A stretch of 64,000 nt of DNA from an uncultured Candidatus Saccharibacteria bacterium (GCA_964608605.1 CAZSOS010000001.1:207452-271451); one strand, 5' to 3'; positions 3,325 through 64,000 are shown, numbered from the stretch's first letter. The notes: generated by a model from the sequence alone, not told the origin. Translations and numbers: made by a program.

Positions 3325-4002
3325 ATGGATCTCTCCCGATTCTTCAACGAAATAATGCCGCGAATGAGCGCTTTCTTAGGCGTCTTCTTCGTGGTCATGA
3401 TGATCGGCTACGGCTTTCTCTATTTCATCGACTTCGTGCCCGAGGCCCCGACCGATAACGAGGCCAAGAAAGCCGAGGAAACCGCTTCAGTCATAGAGGA
3501 AGAACCGGCGGCAGCGCAGCCGGTCATCGAGGAAACCCCTACCGTGGCTATAAATAACGATCCTTTCCCGATCAGTATCTCTCTTAGCCCTCTAGATCGC
3601 ACCGTGACCGTCCTTAATCCCGCCTCCCGCAGCGTGGCCGATCTGGATGCCGCCTTGCTTAAGGGCGTGGTGCGCCACCCGGACTCGGCCGATCTCAACG
3701 ATGAACAGGGAAATATCCTTATTCTCGGCCATTCCAGTTACCTAAAGAACGTCTTCAATAAGAACTACCAGGCCTTCAACGGCATCCAGAACCTCAAATG
3801 GGGCGATACCATCACCCTCAAGTCGAGCGACATGGAATACACCTACCGCGTGGATAGGGTATACGAGGCCAAGGCTAGCGCCGTCATGGTGCCCACCAAG
3901 GCCAGCCAGGCCAAACTCACTCTGGCCACCTGCGATACTTTCGGCGCCAAGGAAGACCGCTTCATCGTCGAAGCCACTCTGGTATCCAAAAAGCCCCTAT
4001 AA
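3325..4002 (+). CDS. sortase family transpeptidase
   Basis: N-terminal TM anchor, catalytic His in ILILGHSSY and the TLXTC Cys motif (KLTLATCDTFG) typical of sortases. Confidence 0.8.
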   Translation: MDLSRFFNEIMPRMSAFLGVFFVVMMIGYGFLYFIDFVPEAPTDNEAKKAEETASVIEEEPAAAQPVIEETPTVAINNDPFPISISLSPLDRTVTVLNPASRSVADLDAALLKGVVRHPDSADLNDEQGNILILGHSSYLKNVFNKNYQAFNGIQNLKWGDTITLKSSDMEYTYRVDRVYEAKASAVMVPTKASQAKLTLATCDTFGAKEDRFIVEATLVSKKPL

Positions 4003-4613: not shown

Positions 4614-4701
4614 AACATTCATTATGGATGTTGGCGACGAAACCATGTTTCGTCTTCATTATCCGGAATGATCCGGTAGTTACAAATTCTATCAATTATT
4701 T

Positions 4702-6381
4702 ATGAAAAATTTTATCAATACCAAGGTATTCCTCTTTGGCATCATCGCTGCCTCTACCGCAGCGGTCATGGTTTTTGTGGTCATACCTCAGTTTCCTCAG
4801 GTTAACAGTTCTATCGATGGCCTCAGCACTTCTATCGACAAGGTAGAGGCCTGGGGTGATTGGTCTGGTTCCGGAGACTACGGTTCCGGTTGTTGCGACT
4901 ATACCGGTGATAGTTATGATACTGGATGGGGCGACTGGTCTGGCACCGGCGACTATGGTTCCGGTTGTTGTGACTCCACTAGCGGTGGCGGCTACGGCGG
5001 AAGTTACACTCCTTCCACCCCCTCTACTCCAGACACCCCGACTTACACGCCTCCGACCTACGTTCCGCCTCCGACTCCGGCAGCCGTCTGTCATTATTTG
5101 ACAGCTAGTGCCTCGTCGGTGAAGTACGGCGGTGATACTGTCTACCTCTCATGGAGCACTAGCAACGCTGGATCGGTCTCGATCAGCGGCATCGGTAGCG
5201 TGGCCGCGAGTGGTAGTAACCACCCGGTATCCGTCAGCTCTGACACCACGTTCACTCTGACCGCCACTTCGGCCGGAGGCAACGGTTCTTGCGCCGTCAC
5301 TATCACGGTTCAGCCGCCTTTGGCCGCCGTTTGTAACTACCTTAATTCCAGCCACGTGAACGTGCCCGTCGAGGGCGCTACCGTGACCCTCTCCTGGTCG
5401 ACCACCAACGCTAGCTCGGTCTCGATCAGCGGCGTCGGTAACGTCTCTCCAGTGAATCAGGGACAGGTCAATGTCTTCGTTAGCGGTAACCGCACCTTCA
5501 CTCTGACCGCGGTCGGAACCGGAGGCAACGGTTCCTGCACCGTCTCTATCGGTACGAACATCACCAATAAGGATATCCCTCGCTGCGAATACCTGCGCGC
5601 CAACGTTGGCAACAACGTCAAGCGTGGCGATCGGATCACCCTTACTTGGGCGACCACCAACGCTGACATGGTCCACATCAGCCCGATGCCGGGAGGCGTC
5701 TCCCGCAACGGCTCCGAGACCGTGATCCTCGAGAACGACGTCAACACCTTCACTCTGACCGCTCGTAACTTCCAGACCAACAACGAAGCTACCTGTACGG
5801 TGACCGTGCGCGTCGATAAGGAGGACAAGACCCCTACCTGCGACCTCAAGGTCTCCAAGTCCCGCGTCAACCGCGGCGAGAAGGTAACCCTTTCTTGGAA
5901 GACCACCGACACCGAGGGTCTCCGCATCCGCGACGACCAGGGAAAGACCATCTTCGACATCTCGCACTACAGCGTCTCTGAGCGCCGCCACTACAAGACC
6001 GGCGAAGTGGACGTCATCGTCAACCGCAACACCGAGTTCATCATGAACGTTCGCGGTGAAGACAACTCCAGCCGCACCTGCCGCGTCGAGGTTACCGTTG
6101 GCGGACTCGAAGTCTACGAGAAGCGCGATCAGGGATACGTCATCGCTTTGACCCAGGTGCCTTACACCGGATTCGAAGCTGGCGCCTTCCTGACCTTCCT
6201 CTTCTACGCGGTATTGACCCTCTGGGCTCTCTTCATCGCTTACGTGCTCGTCATCAAGAAGGGCACTGTGCTTGGATTCTCTCTCTACGGCGCTACCGCC
6301 GGCTTGAGCGAGACCGACGTGGAGAACCGAAAAAAAGTAGAAGCGCTGGTAGCGAAGTACAGTGGACAGAACCAGAAGTAG
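4702..6381 (+). CDS. surface protein with Cys-rich tandem repeats, four Ig-like repeats and a C-terminal PYTG-TM-KKG segment
   Basis: N-terminal signal anchor, 2x GDWSG(S/T)GDYGSGCCD repeat, P/T linker, four ~85-aa repeats each bounded by Cys, then QVPYTGFEAG plus a hydrophobic stretch and KKG. Confidence 0.75.
   Translation: MKNFINTKVFLFGIIAASTAAVMVFVVIPQFPQVNSSIDGLSTSIDKVEAWGDWSGSGDYGSGCCDYTGDSYDTGWGDWSGTGDYGSGCCDSTSGGGYGGSYTPSTPSTPDTPTYTPPTYVPPPTPAAVCHYLTASASSVKYGGDTVYLSWSTSNAGSVSISGIGSVAASGSNHPVSVSSDTTFTLTATSAGGNGSCAVTITVQPPLAAVCNYLNSSHVNVPVEGATVTLSWSTTNASSVSISGVGNVSPVNQGQVNVFVSGNRTFTLTAVGTGGNGSCTVSIGTNITNKDIPRCEYLRANVGNNVKRGDRITLTWATTNADMVHISPMPGGVSRNGSETVILENDVNTFTLTARNFQTNNEATCTVTVRVDKEDKTPTCDLKVSKSRVNRGEKVTLSWKTTDTEGLRIRDDQGKTIFDISHYSVSERRHYKTGEVDVIVNRNTEFIMNVRGEDNSSRTCRVEVTVGGLEVYEKRDQGYVIALTQVPYTGFEAGAFLTFLFYAVLTLWALFIAYVLVIKKGTVLGFSLYGATAGLSETDVENRKKVEALVAKYSGQNQK
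4850..4990 (+). repeat. intragenic ~78-bp tandem repeat encoding GDWSG-GDYGSGCCD
   Basis: Two near-identical DNA units (tggggtgattggtctgg... / tggggcgactggtctgg...). Confidence 0.7.
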
Positions 6382-15798: not shown

Positions 15799-18051
15799 GT
15801 GTATCTAAAACACCTCACTATCAACGGCTTCAAATCCTTCGCCAAGAAAGGCGAGTTGGAGTTTTCCGCGCCCATCACTTCCATCGTGGGACCGAACGGT
15901 TCGGGAAAATCGAACGTGGCCGAATCCTTCCGCTTCGTGCTCGGAGAACAGTCACCCTCTAAGATGCGCGGCAAAAAGGGCGAGGATCTCATCTGGGGCG
16001 GTTCCGACCAGGTGTCCCGCGGCAATCGGGCCTCGGTATCCGTTACCCTCGACAATCAGAAGCGGGTCTTCGGTCTTGATTTCGACGAGATCGTCCTCGA
16101 GCGCGTCGTCCATCGCGACGGCCAGAACGAATACCTCATAAATGGCAGCCAAGTGCGTCTTAAGGACGTACAGGAACTTCTGGCTGCCGCCAACATCGGT
16201 CCCTCCGGCCACCACATCATCTCTCAGGGCGAGGCCGACCGTATCCTTTCAGCTAGCCCTAAGGAACGCCGCGAGATGATCGAGGACGCGCTCGGACTCA
16301 AGGTCTATCAGCTGAAGAAGGGCGAGGCCGAGAAGAAACTCGACAAGACCAAAGAGAACATCGAAAGGGTGGAAGGACTGCGCCGCGAGGTGGCCCCGCA
16401 CCTGCGGTTCTTGGAGAAGCAGGTGAAGAAGCTCGAGCGCGCCACGGAGACCCGCGAACGCTTACGCGCCACCTACGCCGAGTACCTGAAGCGGGAAGAT
16501 ATCTATCTGGCCGCTTGGCAGGACCGCGTCAAGAACGAGCTCGAACCGCTTAGGTCCAGCCTTAAAGACATAGAGGCTTCCTTGGCGGAAGCCCGCGACG
16601 TTCTGGAGTCCAAACAGCAGGACGAGCAGCGCGGGGCTTTGGTAGCCGCCGAAAGGGAGTTATCGGAAGCCCGCCAGGGTCGTCAGGACCTGCTGAGAAC
16701 GGTCGGCTCTTTGGAGGGACAAATAGCTTTCATAGAGCGGCGTGTCGAAGAGGCCAAGCGCCGTGAGGGGCAGGGAAAGGACGTCAAGATCGCCTACCTT
16801 GACCTGGACAAGGTGGTGACGGTACTCGAACGAGAGGCCGAGCGCGCCGCGGCGGAAAGCGACGTCTCGAGATTGCGCCGCACCATCGCCGATTTCGCCC
16901 GTACTCTGCGGCAGTTCTTGTCCCAGGCCGCGCGCGTCGAAGATCCTTCGACCGCGGCCGAGGAGAACGAGCTGGTCCGTTTGCGCGAACAGAAATCGAC
17001 AGTGGACGTCAAACTGAAGGCGGCGGAGAAGCGGGAGGCCGAGGCCGAGGCCGCGTACCAAAAGGTCCGGACCGAGATCGAAAAGGACCGCGACCAGAGC
17101 CGCGAGGCGGAGCGCCGGGTCTTCGCTTTGGTCAACGAACGCCGCGAGCTCGAATCCTCCCTGACGCGGCTGGAGTTCGAAGAGACGGCCCTGTCCCGCG
17201 ACCGCGACGAGTTCAAGCGGGAGCTCCAGGAAGCCGTGGCGCTTCTGGGCCGCGGCGCCACGGATTATCTGGAGCATGACCTCGGCGAACCCAAGAACGC
17301 GGTAACTTCCGAAGATCGCGAAAAGCAGCGCGACCGCCGTCGGGAACTGGAGAAGATGAAGATCCGCCTCGAAGAGCTTGGCGGCGCCAACGCCGACCTG
17401 GAAGCCGAATACAAGAACGTGAAGGAGCGGGATGACTTTTTAGTACGTGAGATCAACGACCTTAATACTTCGGTTTCCAAGCTCGAAGAGCTTATCGGGG
17501 AGCTCGAAGCGCAGCTCGACGCGCGTTTCGGCAGCGGTATCGAGAAGATCAGCGCTGAATTCAATAAATTCTTCGCGCTCATGTTCGGCGGGGGTACCGC
17601 CGAACTGACGCGGGTGAAGCTGGAGACCCGCCGGCGCAAGACGAGCGAAGACGAAGAGCTGCCGGAGGAGGAAGAGGTCCCGACCGCCAAGGCCGAGACC
17701 GGCATCGAGATCGGGGTGAAGCTGCCGAACAAACGGGTCAAAGGGCTCGACATGCTTTCCGGCGGCGAGCGGGCGTTGACCTCGATCGCACTCATCTTCG
17801 CCATGAGCCAGGTCAATCCGCCCTTGTTCATCATCCTCGACGAGACCGACGCAGCCTTGGACGAGGCCAACAGCCGCCGTTATGGCGACATGATCGAGGC
17901 TTTGGCGAAGAAGTCCCAGCTCATCCTCATCACCCATAACCGTGAGACCATGAGCCGCGCCGGTATCCTCTACGGCGTCACCATGTCCGGGGACGGCGTT
18001 TCGAAACTTCTTTCAGTGAAACTCCAGGATGCTCTGGCCGTGGCCAAATAA
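15799..18051 (+). CDS. smc: SMC-family chromosome segregation ATPase (short, 750 aa)
   Basis: GTG start. N-terminal Walker A GPNGSGKSN, long coiled coils, C-terminal LSGGERALTSIALIFAM...ILDETDAALD signature/Walker B. Confidence 0.85.
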   Translation: MYLKHLTINGFKSFAKKGELEFSAPITSIVGPNGSGKSNVAESFRFVLGEQSPSKMRGKKGEDLIWGGSDQVSRGNRASVSVTLDNQKRVFGLDFDEIVLERVVHRDGQNEYLINGSQVRLKDVQELLAAANIGPSGHHIISQGEADRILSASPKERREMIEDALGLKVYQLKKGEAEKKLDKTKENIERVEGLRREVAPHLRFLEKQVKKLERATETRERLRATYAEYLKREDIYLAAWQDRVKNELEPLRSSLKDIEASLAEARDVLESKQQDEQRGALVAAERELSEARQGRQDLLRTVGSLEGQIAFIERRVEEAKRREGQGKDVKIAYLDLDKVVTVLEREAERAAAESDVSRLRRTIADFARTLRQFLSQAARVEDPSTAAEENELVRLREQKSTVDVKLKAAEKREAEAEAAYQKVRTEIEKDRDQSREAERRVFALVNERRELESSLTRLEFEETALSRDRDEFKRELQEAVALLGRGATDYLEHDLGEPKNAVTSEDREKQRDRRRELEKMKIRLEELGGANADLEAEYKNVKERDDFLVREINDLNTSVSKLEELIGELEAQLDARFGSGIEKISAEFNKFFALMFGGGTAELTRVKLETRRRKTSEDEELPEEEEVPTAKAETGIEIGVKLPNKRVKGLDMLSGGERALTSIALIFAMSQVNPPLFIILDETDAALDEANSRRYGDMIEALAKKSQLILITHNRETMSRAGILYGVTMSGDGVSKLLSVKLQDALAVAK

Positions 18052-59961: not shown

Positions 59962-60032
59962 GGGCCCATAGTATAGCGGTAGAACGCCTCCATGGCATGG
60001 AGGAGGTCGGGGTTCGACTCCCCGTGGGTCCA
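59962..60032 (+). tRNA. tRNA-Ala (anticodon GGC)
   Basis: Hand-folded. Acceptor GGGCCCA/TGGGTCC with G3:U70. Anticodon loop ATGGCAT. T-arm GGGGTTCGACTCCCC. Discriminator A. No encoded CCA. The D-stem has one A-A mismatch. Confidence 0.7.
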
Positions 60033-60050
60033 CGCGGTTATGGTATTTCG

Positions 60051-60086: not shown

Positions 60087-60157
60087 CGGGCCGTAGCATA
60101 GTGGTAGTGTTCGCGATTCGGGTTCGCGAGGTCCGAGTTCGATTCTCGGCGGCCCGA
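60087..60157 (+). tRNA. tRNA-Pro (anticodon CGG)
   Basis: Hand-folded. C1:G72 acceptor CGGGCCG/CGGCCCG with A73, as is typical of bacterial tRNA-Pro. Anticodon stem-loop CGCGA-TTCGGGT-TCGCG. T-arm CCGAG-TTCGATT-CTCGG. Confidence 0.75.
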
Positions 60158-60209
60158 CAATGTGTTGTATCGGAAGTCCCGGGGACTTCCGTGGCTACAA
60201 CGAAGGTGT

Positions 60210-60557: not shown

Positions 60558-60657
60558 ATGTATTCTACCACAATAATCATGCTTGAATATTGAAAGAATG
60601 TGGATTTTCTGTAGAATAGACGCAACTTGGTCGATATCGCCGATCCAAGTAGTACAT

Positions 60658-61007
60658 TCCCCTGTAGCTCAGCGGTAGAGCAGTCGACTGTATGTATTGC
60701 AGCTTCCTAGGGAAACCTAGGTCGAAAAGAAGGTGAATTGTCCGAAGCGCGCAAGCGCAACGGATCCGGAACCGCAAGGTTCTAGGACTGGAAACCCAAA
60801 CGTGTAGTCGTGGGCAATCAGCAGCCAAGTCCTCAGAGTAATCTAAGGAAAGGTTCAGAGACTATCCCTAACGGGAGTAGCCGAGCAAGAAATTGCTCCA
60901 GGCGAAGCGCCTTCCACCCCTTTCGGGTGATGATATAGTCCACGCCCTTTGGAAACATCGGGATCAGTGTAATCGATTGGTCGCAGGTTCGAATCCTGCC
61001 GGGGGAG
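60658..61007 (+). tRNA. tRNA-Asn (anticodon GUU) interrupted by a group I intron between positions 35 and 36
   Basis: The 5' exon TCCCCTGTAGCTCAGCGGTAGAGCAGTCGACTGT and the 3' exon TAATCGATTGGTCGCAGGTTCGAATCCTGCCGGGGGAG splice to a canonical Asn tRNA (U1:A72, G73, loop CUGUUAA) closely matching E. coli tRNA-Asn. Confidence 0.8.
60692..60969 (+). ncRNA. group I self-splicing intron (278 nt, no ORF)
   Basis: R element GTTCAGAGACTA at 60853-60864 and S-like GATATAGTCC at 60933-60942, giving P7 GACUA/UAGUC. The 5' exon ends in U and pairs with IGS GCAG through a U-G wobble. The intron ends in G. Confidence 0.75.
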
Positions 61008-61008
61008 C

Positions 61009-61045
61009 AAATGAAAAAGCACCGTTTTGGTGCTTTTTCATTTGC
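61009..61045 (+). terminator. intrinsic terminator
   Basis: AAATGAAAAAGCACC-GTTTT-GGTGCTTTTTCATTT. Confidence 0.75.
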
Positions 61046-61192
61046 GAGCCCGGAGAAAGTGCCAGTGGCACTTTCGTCAGGATTCGAAGACCTTGCCAGA
61101 TATTTTGTGACGCAAAGAAACAAAATATCGACAAGGTGTACCGCCCATGTAATGGGAGAAATTCCTGCCGGGGAGCTGAGGTATAATTTTAT

Positions 61193-61699
61193 ATGTTAGG
61201 TTTTGTATCTATGGAATTTTTAATACTTTCCCTCGTAATACTAGGAGTAGTGGTACTGGCAGTAGTTACATTAAAGCTCTTTTCAATATCAAAGACCGAC
61301 CAACCACTCCCTTACCGAGCTAAACAATATTTCTTTTCTCGCTCGGAGCAAGAGTTTCTTAGAATTTTAAACGAATCACTCGATAGGCAACGCTTTGTGA
61401 TTTTTCCAAAAGTGAGACTTGCTGACTTTATAGAAGTGACTATTAGAGGACGTGAGTACCAAGGTTGGTTGAGTAAAATTAAATCAAAGCATGTCGACTT
61501 TCTAATTTGGGATGTTAAAAATCACAAAATAGCCTTAGCAGTTGAGTTAGACGGTAAATCCCACAACATTGAACCTATGCAAACAAGAGATGAGTTTGTT
61601 AACCGGCTATATGACAAGGTGGAAATAAGATTAGTAAGAGTCAAAGTAGGTAGCAATTTCTTGACAGAAGCAAAAATTATATCTGAATCTTTAAGTTAA
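61193..61699 (+). CDS. DUF2726-like (restriction-endonuclease-fold) membrane-anchored protein
   Basis: AT-rich. N-terminal TM, then FPKVRLADFI...HVDFLIWDV...LAVELDGKSH, which resembles the DUF2726/NERD-like nuclease fold. Confidence 0.6.
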   Translation: MLGFVSMEFLILSLVILGVVVLAVVTLKLFSISKTDQPLPYRAKQYFFSRSEQEFLRILNESLDRQRFVIFPKVRLADFIEVTIRGREYQGWLSKIKSKHVDFLIWDVKNHKIALAVELDGKSHNIEPMQTRDEFVNRLYDKVEIRLVRVKVGSNFLTEAKIISESLS

Positions 61700-61741
61700 T
61701 TAGACTGAGGCGTATACTAAGCACAATAAAACTTCTGGCTG

Positions 61742-62791
61742 ATGAAAAAGGAATTCCCTGAATTTTATAGTTTAAGTAAAGACGAGATAACCGCACTATG
61801 GGAGGGGTGCATATTCGCTTTTGATGCAAATGTCCTTCTTAATCTCTACAGATATTCTCTAGACACTAGCGATAATCTAATCTCAATCTTAAAAAATTTC
61901 TCCGACCGCATTTGGATGCCACACCAGTTCGCTCTTGAGTACCAAAGGAATCGAATGGTGGTGATAGAAGGTCAGCGGGTTAAGTACATGGGGAGTATAA
62001 AGAATATTCTAGGTGAACTGGAGGTCGTAGAGGAACTCCTAGGTAACTACTACGGGAAAATGCCTTTTGACATCAAGAAGATAAAGAATGATTTGTTGAA
62101 GTCTCAGGAAGAGTACCCTGGATGCACATCAGAGGACAAAATGCGGGAGGAAATCGACGCACTTTTCGAGAATAAGGTAGGTAGTCCTTTCGACGAAAAA
62201 AGAATGCTCGCAGTGATAGACGAGGGCAAAGAAAGATACCAAAAAGAAATGCCGCCGGGTTACTGCGACGCGTTAGAAAAAGATAAGAATGATCCCACTA
62301 AGACTCGGAAATATGGAGACCTTATTGGGTGGCTTCAAATGATCGAGAAAGCTAAAACCGAGAAGAAACCCCTTGTATTTATCACCAGTGAGCGAAAGGA
62401 AGACTGGTGGCAAATCGTAAAGGGAAAAACTGTTGGTCCTAGGCACGAATTATTGAAAGAGTTTCAGAAAGAAACTGGAGAAGCATTTCATATGTATGAT
62501 ATGAAACGCTTTCTTGACTATGCGAAAGAAAAACACACAGTCAAAAAGAAAACTATTGATGAAGTTATAAAAATTGATGAAGTGTATAATAACAGCGTCG
62601 CAAGTGAACTTGGGGTAGTTGTTGGTGGTGATACTCCCACTTTGTCAGACTATCTAGTGAACCCTGTAGGTTGGCCAATTACGGAAGCATCATCACAAAC
62701 TTCATCTGTGGAAAAGGAGTCCGCTTGGATTATTGTGCCAGAAAATGATGACGGCACAGGAAATCTGGCAACAGGTGACAGGGAACAATGA
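61742..62791 (+). CDS. PIN-like domain protein (DUF4935-type) with uncharacterised C-terminal half
   Basis: AT-rich. N-terminal IFAFDANVLLNLY (PIN strand 1 Asp), YGDLIGW and ITSERKEDWW acidic positions. 349 aa. Confidence 0.6.
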   Translation: MKKEFPEFYSLSKDEITALWEGCIFAFDANVLLNLYRYSLDTSDNLISILKNFSDRIWMPHQFALEYQRNRMVVIEGQRVKYMGSIKNILGELEVVEELLGNYYGKMPFDIKKIKNDLLKSQEEYPGCTSEDKMREEIDALFENKVGSPFDEKRMLAVIDEGKERYQKEMPPGYCDALEKDKNDPTKTRKYGDLIGWLQMIEKAKTEKKPLVFITSERKEDWWQIVKGKTVGPRHELLKEFQKETGEAFHMYDMKRFLDYAKEKHTVKKKTIDEVIKIDEVYNNSVASELGVVVGGDTPTLSDYLVNPVGWPITEASSQTSSVEKESAWIIVPENDDGTGNLATGDREQ

Positions 62792-62795
62792 ATCT

Positions 62796-63074
62796 ATGAA
62801 GACTTATTTGATAACATACGACTTAATTAAGCCGGAAACTAGCGCGGATTACGTAAAGCTTTTCGCTAATATAAAATCACATCTTGGCTGGGCCAAGCCC
62901 ATGAGATCAGTCTGGTTGATAAAAACTAACAGGTCTAGGGATGAAATCATGAAATTGTTGAGATCAGCAGGTGACAGCAATGATAAATTTTTAGTGATGG
63001 AAGTTACAAGGGAATGGATAGCTTTTAACCTTCCAGCAAGTGTCATTACATGGATGAAGGATGAGATTAAATAA
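62796..63074 (+). CDS. small alpha/beta protein (93 aa), translationally coupled partner of the PIN-like gene
   Basis: Its ATG overlaps the upstream TGA (ATGA). MKTYLITYDL...DYVKLFANIKSHLGWAKPMRSVWLIK resembles the beta1-alpha1-beta2 pattern of Cas2/VapD-like folds, but there is no CRISPR context. Confidence 0.5.
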   Translation: MKTYLITYDLIKPETSADYVKLFANIKSHLGWAKPMRSVWLIKTNRSRDEIMKLLRSAGDSNDKFLVMEVTREWIAFNLPASVITWMKDEIK

Positions 63075-63202
63075 TTTATTAAGATTTTAGTTGTTTATAA
63101 AAGTTCTAACGTCCTCCCAAGCGGTGAGCCAATAAAATCACCTTATTTTACAAGGTGATTTTTTGATATCCAAATAGGGTTCAGAACTGATATAATAAAA
63201 AT

Positions 63203-63598
63203 ATGAAATTAGATGCAATAAGCGTAACCAGCACAGACTTAGAAAAATCAGCCAAGTTCTATTCCTTACTAGGTTTTACTTTCCCTACATTTGGGAAGGA
63301 TGAAAAACATATAGAACCCCAAACAAAAAATGGCGAGGTGAGACTTATGATAGATACTGCTGATTTGATTGAAAGTATCACTGGCTCAAAACCAGTGCCT
63401 CCAAATCATTCTTCGTTTGCAATACTGTGTGAGCAACCTTCAAAAGTAGACGAGGTCTGTATAAAAATAAAAAATGAAGGGTTTGTTGTCATAAAAGAAC
63501 CTTGGGATGCATTTTGGGGACAAAGGTATGCAATTGTTCAAGACCCAGATGGTTATATGATTGATTTATTTGCACCGCTAGAAAATAGTACCACTTAG
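63203..63598 (+). CDS. VOC/glyoxalase-bleomycin resistance family protein
   Basis: 131 aa with the glyoxalase-like beta-alpha-beta-beta-beta module pattern. AT-rich. Confidence 0.7.
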   Translation: MKLDAISVTSTDLEKSAKFYSLLGFTFPTFGKDEKHIEPQTKNGEVRLMIDTADLIESITGSKPVPPNHSSFAILCEQPSKVDEVCIKIKNEGFVVIKEPWDAFWGQRYAIVQDPDGYMIDLFAPLENSTT

Positions 63599-63861
63599 TT
63601 CTGAAGAGCAATCTCCGAAAACATTTCAGAAATCTTAGAGTACTCAATATCTCTTTTAATTTGAACCCAATTGAGAGTTCTGAATGCGTCCACTAGAGGG
63701 AGCTAGTGAAAAAGACCCTTACAAAGGTCTTTTTCGTTTGCTCCGTGGGAGAGAATCCTCTCGGAAAGTTTTCATACGTGTTACCAAACCGCCGATATTT
63801 CCCCAAGAAATACTTACCGAAGCTGAATCCTTGCCACCCTGAAGTGTTAAAATAATTAACA

Positions 63862-64000
63862 ATGAAAGATATCTTTAAACTCGCCGCCGCCATCGCGATC
63901 TCCGAATTCGCCGGCATCATCGGTTCGGCGTTCACCGTTCCGGCCATTCCGGCGTGGTATGCGACTCTCAATAAGCCCGCTCTCAACCCACCCAGCTGGA
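63862..64000 (+). CDS. TspO/MBR family protein (5' partial, runs off the window end)
   Basis: AWYATLNKPALNPPSW matches the conserved TspO N-terminal motif. GC returns to the chassis level here. Confidence 0.6.
   Translation, partial: MKDIFKLAAAIAISEFAGIIGSAFTVPAIPAWYATLNKPALNPPSW

Follow-up and report, generated by a model that had tools for sequence, protein, structure and literature searches.

Introduction

The classical hosts of IC3-type group I introns among tRNAs are cyanobacterial and plastid tRNA-Leu(UAA), in which the intron lies at 34/35, tRNA-fMet, Azoarcus tRNA-Ile, and Agrobacterium tRNA-Arg. IA-type group I introns occur in phages, as exemplified by T4 td/nrdB-like introns, and in the scheme of Michel and Westhof, the presence of P7.1 and P7.2 between P7 and P3′ is the mark of subgroup IA.

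The four classical intron-split bacterial tRNAs have been expanded to 21 classes (Williams, 2020; bioRxiv 10.1101/2020.01.27.920355), of which the class with an insertion between anticodon positions 35 and 36 of tRNA-Asn is ‘Asn.4Ug’, as cited in Nakagawa et al. (2026; mSystems, PMC13011429). Among 4,934 complete genomes, 28 insertions at 35/36 were found, 19 of them in Patescibacteria, and 25 of the 28 are IA introns (Nakagawa et al., 2026). The 35/36 introns of Patescibacteria reside in 15 tRNA-Asn(GUU) and three tRNA-Asp(GUC) genes, and four tRNA-Asn introns contain HNH endonucleases. No patescibacterial tRNA intron was classed as IC, intronless and intron-containing copies of one anticodon rarely coexist in a genome, and the published homologs best match intronless tRNA-Asn genes (Nakagawa et al., 2026). 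Precise self-splicing at 35/36 in vitro was demonstrated for the intron of GCA_016700035.1 (Saccharimonadia), the ligated exons of which were sequenced, and a control mutant with ωG changed to C loses exon ligation (Nakagawa et al., 2026). The 35/36 introns in tRNA-Asn, tRNA-Asp, and tRNA-Tyr all have the guide GCAG against C32-U33-G34-U35 (Nakagawa et al., 2026, Table S3). This target is common to tRNAs with GUN anticodons, which may explain the choice of host tRNAs.

Here, we describe a locus near the end of a 64,000-nt stretch of DNA (the window) that we read, with a probability of about 0.93, as a self-splicing, ORF-less, IA-type group I intron between U35 and U36 of a Paceibacteria tRNA-Asn(GUU) gene. 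The assignment to group I follows from a match to Rfam model RF00028, a covarying P1–P9 model, a terminal ωG, a U•G wobble at the 5′ splice site, and homology to published introns. A preliminary description of the locus had regarded tRNA-Asn with an insertion at 35/36 as an unusual host. This holds against the classical literature (Leu, fMet, Ile, and Arg) but is outdated, as the class was published in 2020 and 2026. The host, site, probable subgroup, and sequence family are all within the published range, and the window intron is therefore one more member of a known family, with no novelty in kind.

Host and Genomic Context

The window is a fragment of a bacterial chromosome that includes gyrB, thrS, dnaE, smc, rnr, rpoB, rpoC, and dnaG. 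RpoB is 89% identical to a protein of a ‘Candidatus Paceibacterota bacterium,’ further named matches are to Patescibacteria or Parcubacteria, and UBA918, a relative with conserved synteny, is listed in the Patescibacteria group. Judged from these protein sequences, the host is a member of Paceibacteria (Patescibacteria/CPR). An SMC-like ORF (15799–18051, + strand) encodes 750 amino acids as compared with about 1180 model positions, and matches the model in two stretches with a score just below the NCBIfam cut-off (546 versus 567 bits). RpoB is likewise short (1071 amino acids), and the two may represent reduced proteins typical of the phylum.

The split tRNA-Asn gene follows genes for tRNA-Ala(GGC) and tRNA-Pro(CGG), and an ORF on the opposite strand, which has no match in Pfam, lies between tRNA-Pro and tRNA-Asn (Table 1). 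The tRNA-Asn gene probably has its own promoter. The promoter-like site upstream of exon 1 is identified only by its match to the consensus, and sites of this kind are no more frequent than shuffled sequence would predict. Directly after G73 is a perfect hairpin that looks like a bidirectional intrinsic terminator of the tRNA gene. Analogous hairpins follow the tRNA in relatives, and a simple terminator scan of the window did not flag this one.

Table 1. Positions of the features of the split tRNA-Asn locus, numbered from the first nucleotide of the window.
Feature	Position	Strand	Description and basis
ORF, 105 aa	60240–60557	-	Between tRNA-Pro and tRNA-Asn; 83% protein identity in UBA918
Promoter-like site	60590–60617	+	TTGAAA-16-TAGAAT; 10 of 12 consensus matches; about 40 nt upstream of tRNA 5′ end
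tRNA-Asn exon 1, 34 nt	60658–60691	+	Acceptor 5′ strand, D arm, anticodon stem 5′ strand, C32 U33 G34 U35
Group I intron, 278 nt	60692–60969	+	Probable IA type, ORF-less; RF00028 match, structure model, covariation
P1, 4 bp, 7-nt loop	60688–60702	+	Exon CUGU (60688–60691) with guide GCAG (60699–60702); U35 (60691)•G60699 at 5′ splice site
P2 hairpin	60706–60721	+	CCUAGG-GAAA-CCUAGG; compensatory changes at 6 of 6 pairs
P3, 5′ strand	60729–60735	+	GAAGGUG, pairs with 60908–60914; 4 of 7 pairs covary; 97.7% of cells paired
P4–P5 domain	60739–60823	+	Structure model and covariation
P4, 6 bp	60739–60740 and 60788–60791, with 60818–60823	+	
Insert, 47 nt	60741–60787	+	P4 5′ strand; two hairpins, each capped by GCAA, in minimum free energy fold
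P5	60795–60798, with 60811–60814	+	
P6	60824–60854	+	GUAA-capped extension; compensatory changes at 7 pairs
P7, 5′ strand	60858–60864	+	G-[A bulge]-GACUA, within R element 60853–60864; pairs with 60936–60941
P7.1 hairpin	60865–60876	+	UCCC-UAAC-GGGA; fold, model, alignment
P7.2 hairpin	60880–60903	+	GAAA loop, 2-nt bulge; fold, structure model
P3, 3′ strand	60908–60914	+	CGCCUUC; structure model and covariation
P8 hairpin	60915–60929	+	4 of 5 pairs covary
J8/7 and P7, 3′ strand	60932–60941	+	GAUAUAGUCC; Rfam alignment, structure model
P9.0 enclosing P9	60942–60968	+	P9.0, 2 bp (60942–60943 with 60967–60968); P9, 60945–60962, GAAA loop
ωG	60969	+	Final intron nucleotide; G in 63 of 63 family members
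tRNA-Asn exon 2, 38 nt	60970–61007	+	U36 A37 A38, anticodon stem 3′ strand, variable loop, T arm, acceptor 3′ strand, G73
Terminator-like hairpin	61008–61044	+	16-bp perfect hairpin, GC core, upstream A-tract, downstream T-run; read from sequence
DUF2726 gene	61193–61699		Low-GC region 61180–64000
PIN_8/PIN-like protein gene	61742–62791		Low-GC region 61180–64000
Glyoxalase-family protein gene	63203–63598		Low-GC region 61180–64000

Split tRNA-Asn Gene

Joining the two exons in silico yields a 72-nt RNA that ARAGORN identifies as tRNA-Asn(gtt). The features of tRNA-Asn identity are present (a cloverleaf, the GUU anticodon, the G73 discriminator, and U1:A72), together with a U6•G67 wobble, a 7-nt D loop, and the anticodon loop CUGUUAA; CCA is not encoded at the end of exon 2. 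On the unspliced DNA, ARAGORN in intron mode finds the same tRNA-Asn with a 278-nt intron at position 35. In the 64-kb window, both the default mode of ARAGORN and the Rfam tRNA model miss the gene, reporting solely tRNA-Ala(GGC) (59962–60033) and tRNA-Pro(CGG) (60087–60158), and neither ARAGORN nor Rfam finds a second tRNA-Asn in the window. In a comparison with what we take to be the sequence of E. coli tRNA-Asn, 55 of 72 positions of the spliced tRNA agree. The preliminary description had placed the tRNA halves 278 nt apart and proposed that they join into a canonical tRNA-Asn with U1:A72, G73, and the loop CUGU/UAA, the body of which resembles E. coli tRNA-Asn. Recomputation of the exact coordinates bears this out, and the joined halves fold into a valid tRNA.

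Structure and Classification of the Intron

RF00028 matches nucleotides 60667–60962 over the full model (positions 1–253) with 53.0 bits and E = 1.3e-10 for the whole 64-kb window, which excludes chance as the source of the match. This RF00028 search had been named beforehand as a check on the preliminary description. The score is just 3 bits over the gathering threshold of 50; the 47-nt insert in P4 and P7.1/P7.2 are insertions relative to the model and would reduce it.

The structure model combines the Rfam alignment, an unconstrained fold, and a family alignment of 37 sequences, and a complete P1–P9.0 arrangement can be drawn with standard pairs alone (Table 1). In the predicted fold, P7, a 6-bp helix from which one A bulges, makes a pseudoknot with P3 and contains the guanosine-binding helix. 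The R element GTTCAGAGACTA (60853–60864) and the S-like sequence GATATAGTCC (60932–60941) pair to form P7, as the preliminary description had suggested. Its other structural claims also agree with the model: exon CUGU pairs with the internal guide GCAG through a U-G wobble at the splice site, the intron ends in G (G60969) and has no ORF, and the insertion lies between anticodon positions 35 and 36, as indicated by the intron position in ARAGORN, the wobble at U35, and the published homologs. A P1 of just 4 bp is a point against the intron reading. A P10 with exon 2 UAA was considered and set aside: the window allows a weak 3-bp AAU/AUU pairing, but the nucleotides that precede the guide differ freely from one family member to the next.

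P7.1 and P7.2 between P7 and P3′ place the intron, on its predicted layout, in subgroup IA rather than IC3, and this placement agrees with the IA class of 25 of the 28 published 35/36 introns (Nakagawa et al., 2026). Over aligned columns, the window intron shares 81% identity with the intron of GCA_016699245.1 (Paceibacteria; Nakagawa et al., 2026, Table S3) and 71% with the experimentally spliced intron of GCA_016700035.1. It has in common with the patescibacterial tRNA-Asn introns the host tRNA, the site, the GCAG:CUGU guide pairing, the core motifs, the P7.1/P7.2 layout, and the host phylum or class, but differs from them in the 47-nt two-hairpin insert in the 5′ strand of P4. With phage IA-type introns it shares the motif GGTTCAGAGACTATCCCNNNNGGGAGTA; ARAGORN does not assign those introns to tRNA genes.

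By analogy with the 71% identical homolog that splices in vitro, the window intron is inferred to be catalytic. The pre-tRNA would be transcribed with the intron still inside, and the internal guide GCAG would pair with C32-U33-G34-U35 to form P1 with the U35•G wobble. Exogenous guanosine held in P7 would attack after U35, the terminal G60969 would then occupy the guanosine site, and the free 3′-OH of U35 would attack after ωG, ligating the exons to give a mature tRNA whose anticodon loop is CUGUUAA. These proposed steps are those of the standard group I pathway.

Relatives and Covariation

A search with an exact 35-nt pattern, using one genome per species, returned a single locus (L001) on contig DBEA01000015.1 of ‘Patescibacteria group bacterium UBA918.’ UBA918 shares about 80% DNA identity with the window across about 900 bp and has tRNA-Ala(GGC), tRNA-Pro(CGG), and the split tRNA-Asn in the same order, with upstream proteins 65–83% identical. 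Its exons are 100% identical to those of the window. Its homologous intron (RF00028, 50.8 bits) has diverged in sequence with the structure kept, as in a C-G to U-A change in P2, an A-U to U-A change in P7.2, and loop exchanges.

A degenerate pattern of the R element and P7.1 returned at least 120 metagenome loci and at least 120 viral loci. A locus was counted as a member of the split tRNA-Asn family if the tRNA had U1, exon 1 ended in CUGU, the last intron nucleotide was G, and exon 2 began with UAA. Among the matches listed, together with L001 and the window, the family has 63 loci (60 metagenome loci, one ‘viral’ contig, L001, and the window). The spliced loop is CUGUUAA in all 63, and U1, A72, and G73 are parsed in 60, the remaining three parsing uncleanly.

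The covariation alignment consists of 37 distinct ORF-less members. Paired cells amount to 91.8%, as compared with 34–44% when partners are slid by 1–3 columns, and compensatory changes on both sides occur at 44 pairs. The covariation score is 0.365 versus 0.04–0.10 for slid partners, and none of 500 shuffles reaches the observed values. Compensatory changes are found in P3, P4, P5, P6, and P8 as well as in P9.0 (2 of 2 pairs) and P9 (4 of 5 pairs). P4 covaries on both sides of its insert (GC:21/CG:14, CG:22/GC:12, and GC:18/UA:18). The outer pairs of P7.2 also covary (CG:19/GC:18); its inner part aligns poorly. P1 and P7 are invariant and therefore uninformative for covariation. In addition, P7.1 and the 5′ strand of P7 were fixed by the search pattern. 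CUGU and GCAG of P1 are the same in 37 of 37 aligned relatives, and at the 5′ splice site, UG is seen in each of the 33 relatives for which the alignment has nucleotides there.

The motif GGTTCAGAGACTATCCCNNNNGGGAGTA (R element and P7.1) is present on at least 120 IMG/VR contigs. Rfam identifies group I introns at 12 of 16 sampled viral loci (54–97 bits). ARAGORN does not put the viral introns in tRNA genes, and one of the 120 listed viral loci is a split tRNA-Asn. On one IMG/VR contig (L132, among the viral loci L122–L241), two introns lie about 1 kb apart (4626–4909 and 5937–6231).

Alternative Interpretations of the Locus

If the intron is instead placed at 33/34, two bases closer to the 5′ end, the gene could be read as a tRNA-Thr(UGU). 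Such a boundary (exon 1 ending in CU, intron GUAUG...AUCAG, exon 2 starting with UGUAA) also leaves U at −1, G at the intron end, and a 7-nt loop, CUUGUAA; ARAGORN labels 41 of the 63 family members, among the matches listed, as tRNA-Thr(tgt), and the Thr call was made for published homologs by ARAGORN together with tFind (Nakagawa et al., 2026). At the window locus itself, however, ARAGORN calls Asn, and in P1 of the covariation-supported model, U33 forms a Watson–Crick pair with the A of GCAG and the wobble falls at U35. The body, with U1:A72 and G73 as in 60 of the 63 family members, matches tRNA-Asn, whereas bacterial tRNA-Thr has G1:C72. The sequenced ligated exons of one homolog show a junction at 35/36, and the best matches of published homologs are intronless tRNA-Asn genes (Nakagawa et al., 2026), which together leave a tRNA-Thr gene extremely improbable. 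A move of a classical IC3-type bacterial tRNA intron into a new host tRNA is no more credible than that. The window intron resembles the classical IC3 introns as a small group I ribozyme in the anticodon loop with U•G at the 5′ splice site, ωG, and similar R and S core motifs. It departs from them in its position at 35/36 of tRNA-Asn and in having P7.1 and P7.2, about 40 nt, between P7 and P3′, and thus lacks the compact core and the location at 33/34, 34/35, or 36/37 of tRNA-fMet, -Leu, -Arg, or -Ile that define the classical type. By reading of its sequence, P3′ nearly abuts P7 in the IC3 intron of Nostoc tRNA-Leu, with no such spacing (Nakagawa et al., 2026, Table S4). The nearest sequence relatives of the window intron are published IA introns, the motif of R and P7.1 recurs in many group I introns of viral contigs outside tRNAs, and no tRNA intron of Patescibacteria has been classed as IC (Nakagawa et al., 2026).

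The intron might instead be a decayed, non-splicing relic in a tRNA-Asn pseudogene, with a functional tRNA-Asn elsewhere in the genome. The lost homing endonuclease, the unusual 47-nt insertion in P4, and the marginal Rfam score would fit decay, and the 64-kb window covers one part of the genome. Against this, every core helix is intact, the exons are fully conserved with UBA918, and the changes in the intron, insert included, are compensatory or confined to loops. The 64-kb window contains no other tRNA-Asn, and intron-containing and intronless copies rarely coexist in the published survey (Nakagawa et al., 2026). We consider decay very unlikely and retain the reading of a self-splicing IA intron in a tRNA-Asn(GUU) gene.

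ORF Loss and the P4 Insert

The 278-nt intron contains no homing endonuclease or other useful ORF, with stop codons in all three forward frames. Introns of 544–636 nt are found in 23 of the 63 relatives, most with an ORF of about 100–130 amino acids in the P1 loop (L1), and three of four sampled L1 ORFs match HNH in Pfam. In lacking an HNH ORF, the window copy is like most members of the tRNA-Asn 35/36 family and unlike about a third of them. Its 7-nt P1 loop indicates that the endonuclease has been wholly lost, and the copy was probably inherited vertically. In long family introns such as those of L007, L011, L023, and L044, the ORF occupies the P1 loop and spans intron positions of roughly 30–350. 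In several of the long introns, the final HNH codons (...TQLP) read through the guide GCAGC and the start of P2, so that protein and ribozyme share that sequence.

The 47-nt insert sits between the second and third base pairs of P4. It occurs solely in the window and UBA918, is absent from 35 of the 37 metagenomic relatives, and is likewise absent from those sequences of the published Tables S3 and S4 that entered the comparison (Nakagawa et al., 2026). In UBA918, the stems of the insert are kept and the loops are UUAA and GAAA. Five relatives, including the published Paceibacteria intron of GCA_016699245.1, have a 1-nt bulge at the insert point. A repeated mobile sequence was considered as the source of the insert and rejected, as no further copy was detected by BLAST in the window or among the 241 loci. 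Placed within P4, an insertion of this kind might in theory hinder folding. The conservation of the insert shows that P4 tolerates a large bulged domain. These observations suggest that a permissive bulge site grew into a small peripheral domain kept by selection, and we infer that the insert stabilizes the intron fold. It could be a new peripheral domain.

Structured Element Downstream of the tRNA Gene

After the terminator-type hairpin, the window has a strongly structured element of about 133 nt (61044–61176, + strand). It is also present in UBA918 (L001, about 4905–5045) and, as two copies in tandem, at L003 (about 5094–5345); versions of it occur at 12 or more of the 46 family loci with enough downstream sequence. 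In the first part of the element, the discriminator, acceptor 3′ strand, T-stem 3′ strand, and T-loop of the tRNA itself recur as their reverse complement, which a small hairpin interrupts. The middle part consists of one or two internal hairpins, the last of which carries a GUAA loop in five of the six closest versions. The final part repeats the T-stem and acceptor 3′ strand in direct orientation. These copies track the tRNA sequence of each locus. An element of the same design follows tRNA-Ala(GGC) (3359–3432) on the reverse strand of L050, has ends specific to tRNA-Ala (TGGGATTTGAA ... AAATCCCATCACCTCCAT), and shares the internal motif GAGCGNAGCGA with several elements linked to tRNA-Asn. 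The element is therefore tied neither to tRNA-Asn nor to the intron. It occurs after one of 36 other tRNAs in the fetched loci.

Relative to shuffled sequences, the element folds with z scores of −3.1 to −6.8, equally good on both strands, and G•U pairs are rare on both. Neither folding energies nor G•U counts indicate a preferred strand, and the element fits better with a DNA-level palindrome than with an RNA of one strand. It has no match in Rfam at E ≤ 1 or in ARAGORN searches for tRNA and tmRNA, and a literature search on it returned nothing relevant. A tmRNA-like or a tRNA-like reading accounts for it only partly.

Past the third tRNA-end copy, synteny with UBA918 and relatives stops and the GC content falls from about 0.57 to 0.40. 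With its genes for DUF2726, PIN-like, and glyoxalase-family proteins (Table 1), the region 61180–64000 looks like an accessory or defence island. At other loci, the accessory, defence-type genes beyond the element include those for a C-5 methylase, an HNH-repeat protein, and a protein resembling zeta toxin. Neither the roughly 2 kb around the element nor the remaining 2.8 kb of the window encodes an integrase. The element could be a recombination or integration scaffold that mimics tRNA ends, or a tRNA-like RNA. A wider interpretation, which we hold tentatively and consider rather unlikely, is that the split tRNA-Asn forms the first unit of a larger, undescribed conserved module of tRNA, hairpin, and element (61008–61176), followed by low-GC defence-type genes, with the P4 insert as a possible new peripheral domain.

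Implications for the Family and for CPR Genomes

The split tRNA-Asn family is abundant: among the matches listed, it makes up 60 of 120 metagenome loci. Default ARAGORN and the Rfam tRNA model miss the gene of the window, and intron-aware tools often call its relatives tRNA-Thr(UGU), as ARAGORN does for 41 of 63. Missed or miscalled tRNA-Asn genes can make CPR genomes appear to lack an essential tRNA and distort estimates of their completeness, a point likewise made by Nakagawa et al. (2026). To this family, the locus adds one member from Paceibacteria, a conserved insertion in P4, and a lead on the adjoining element.
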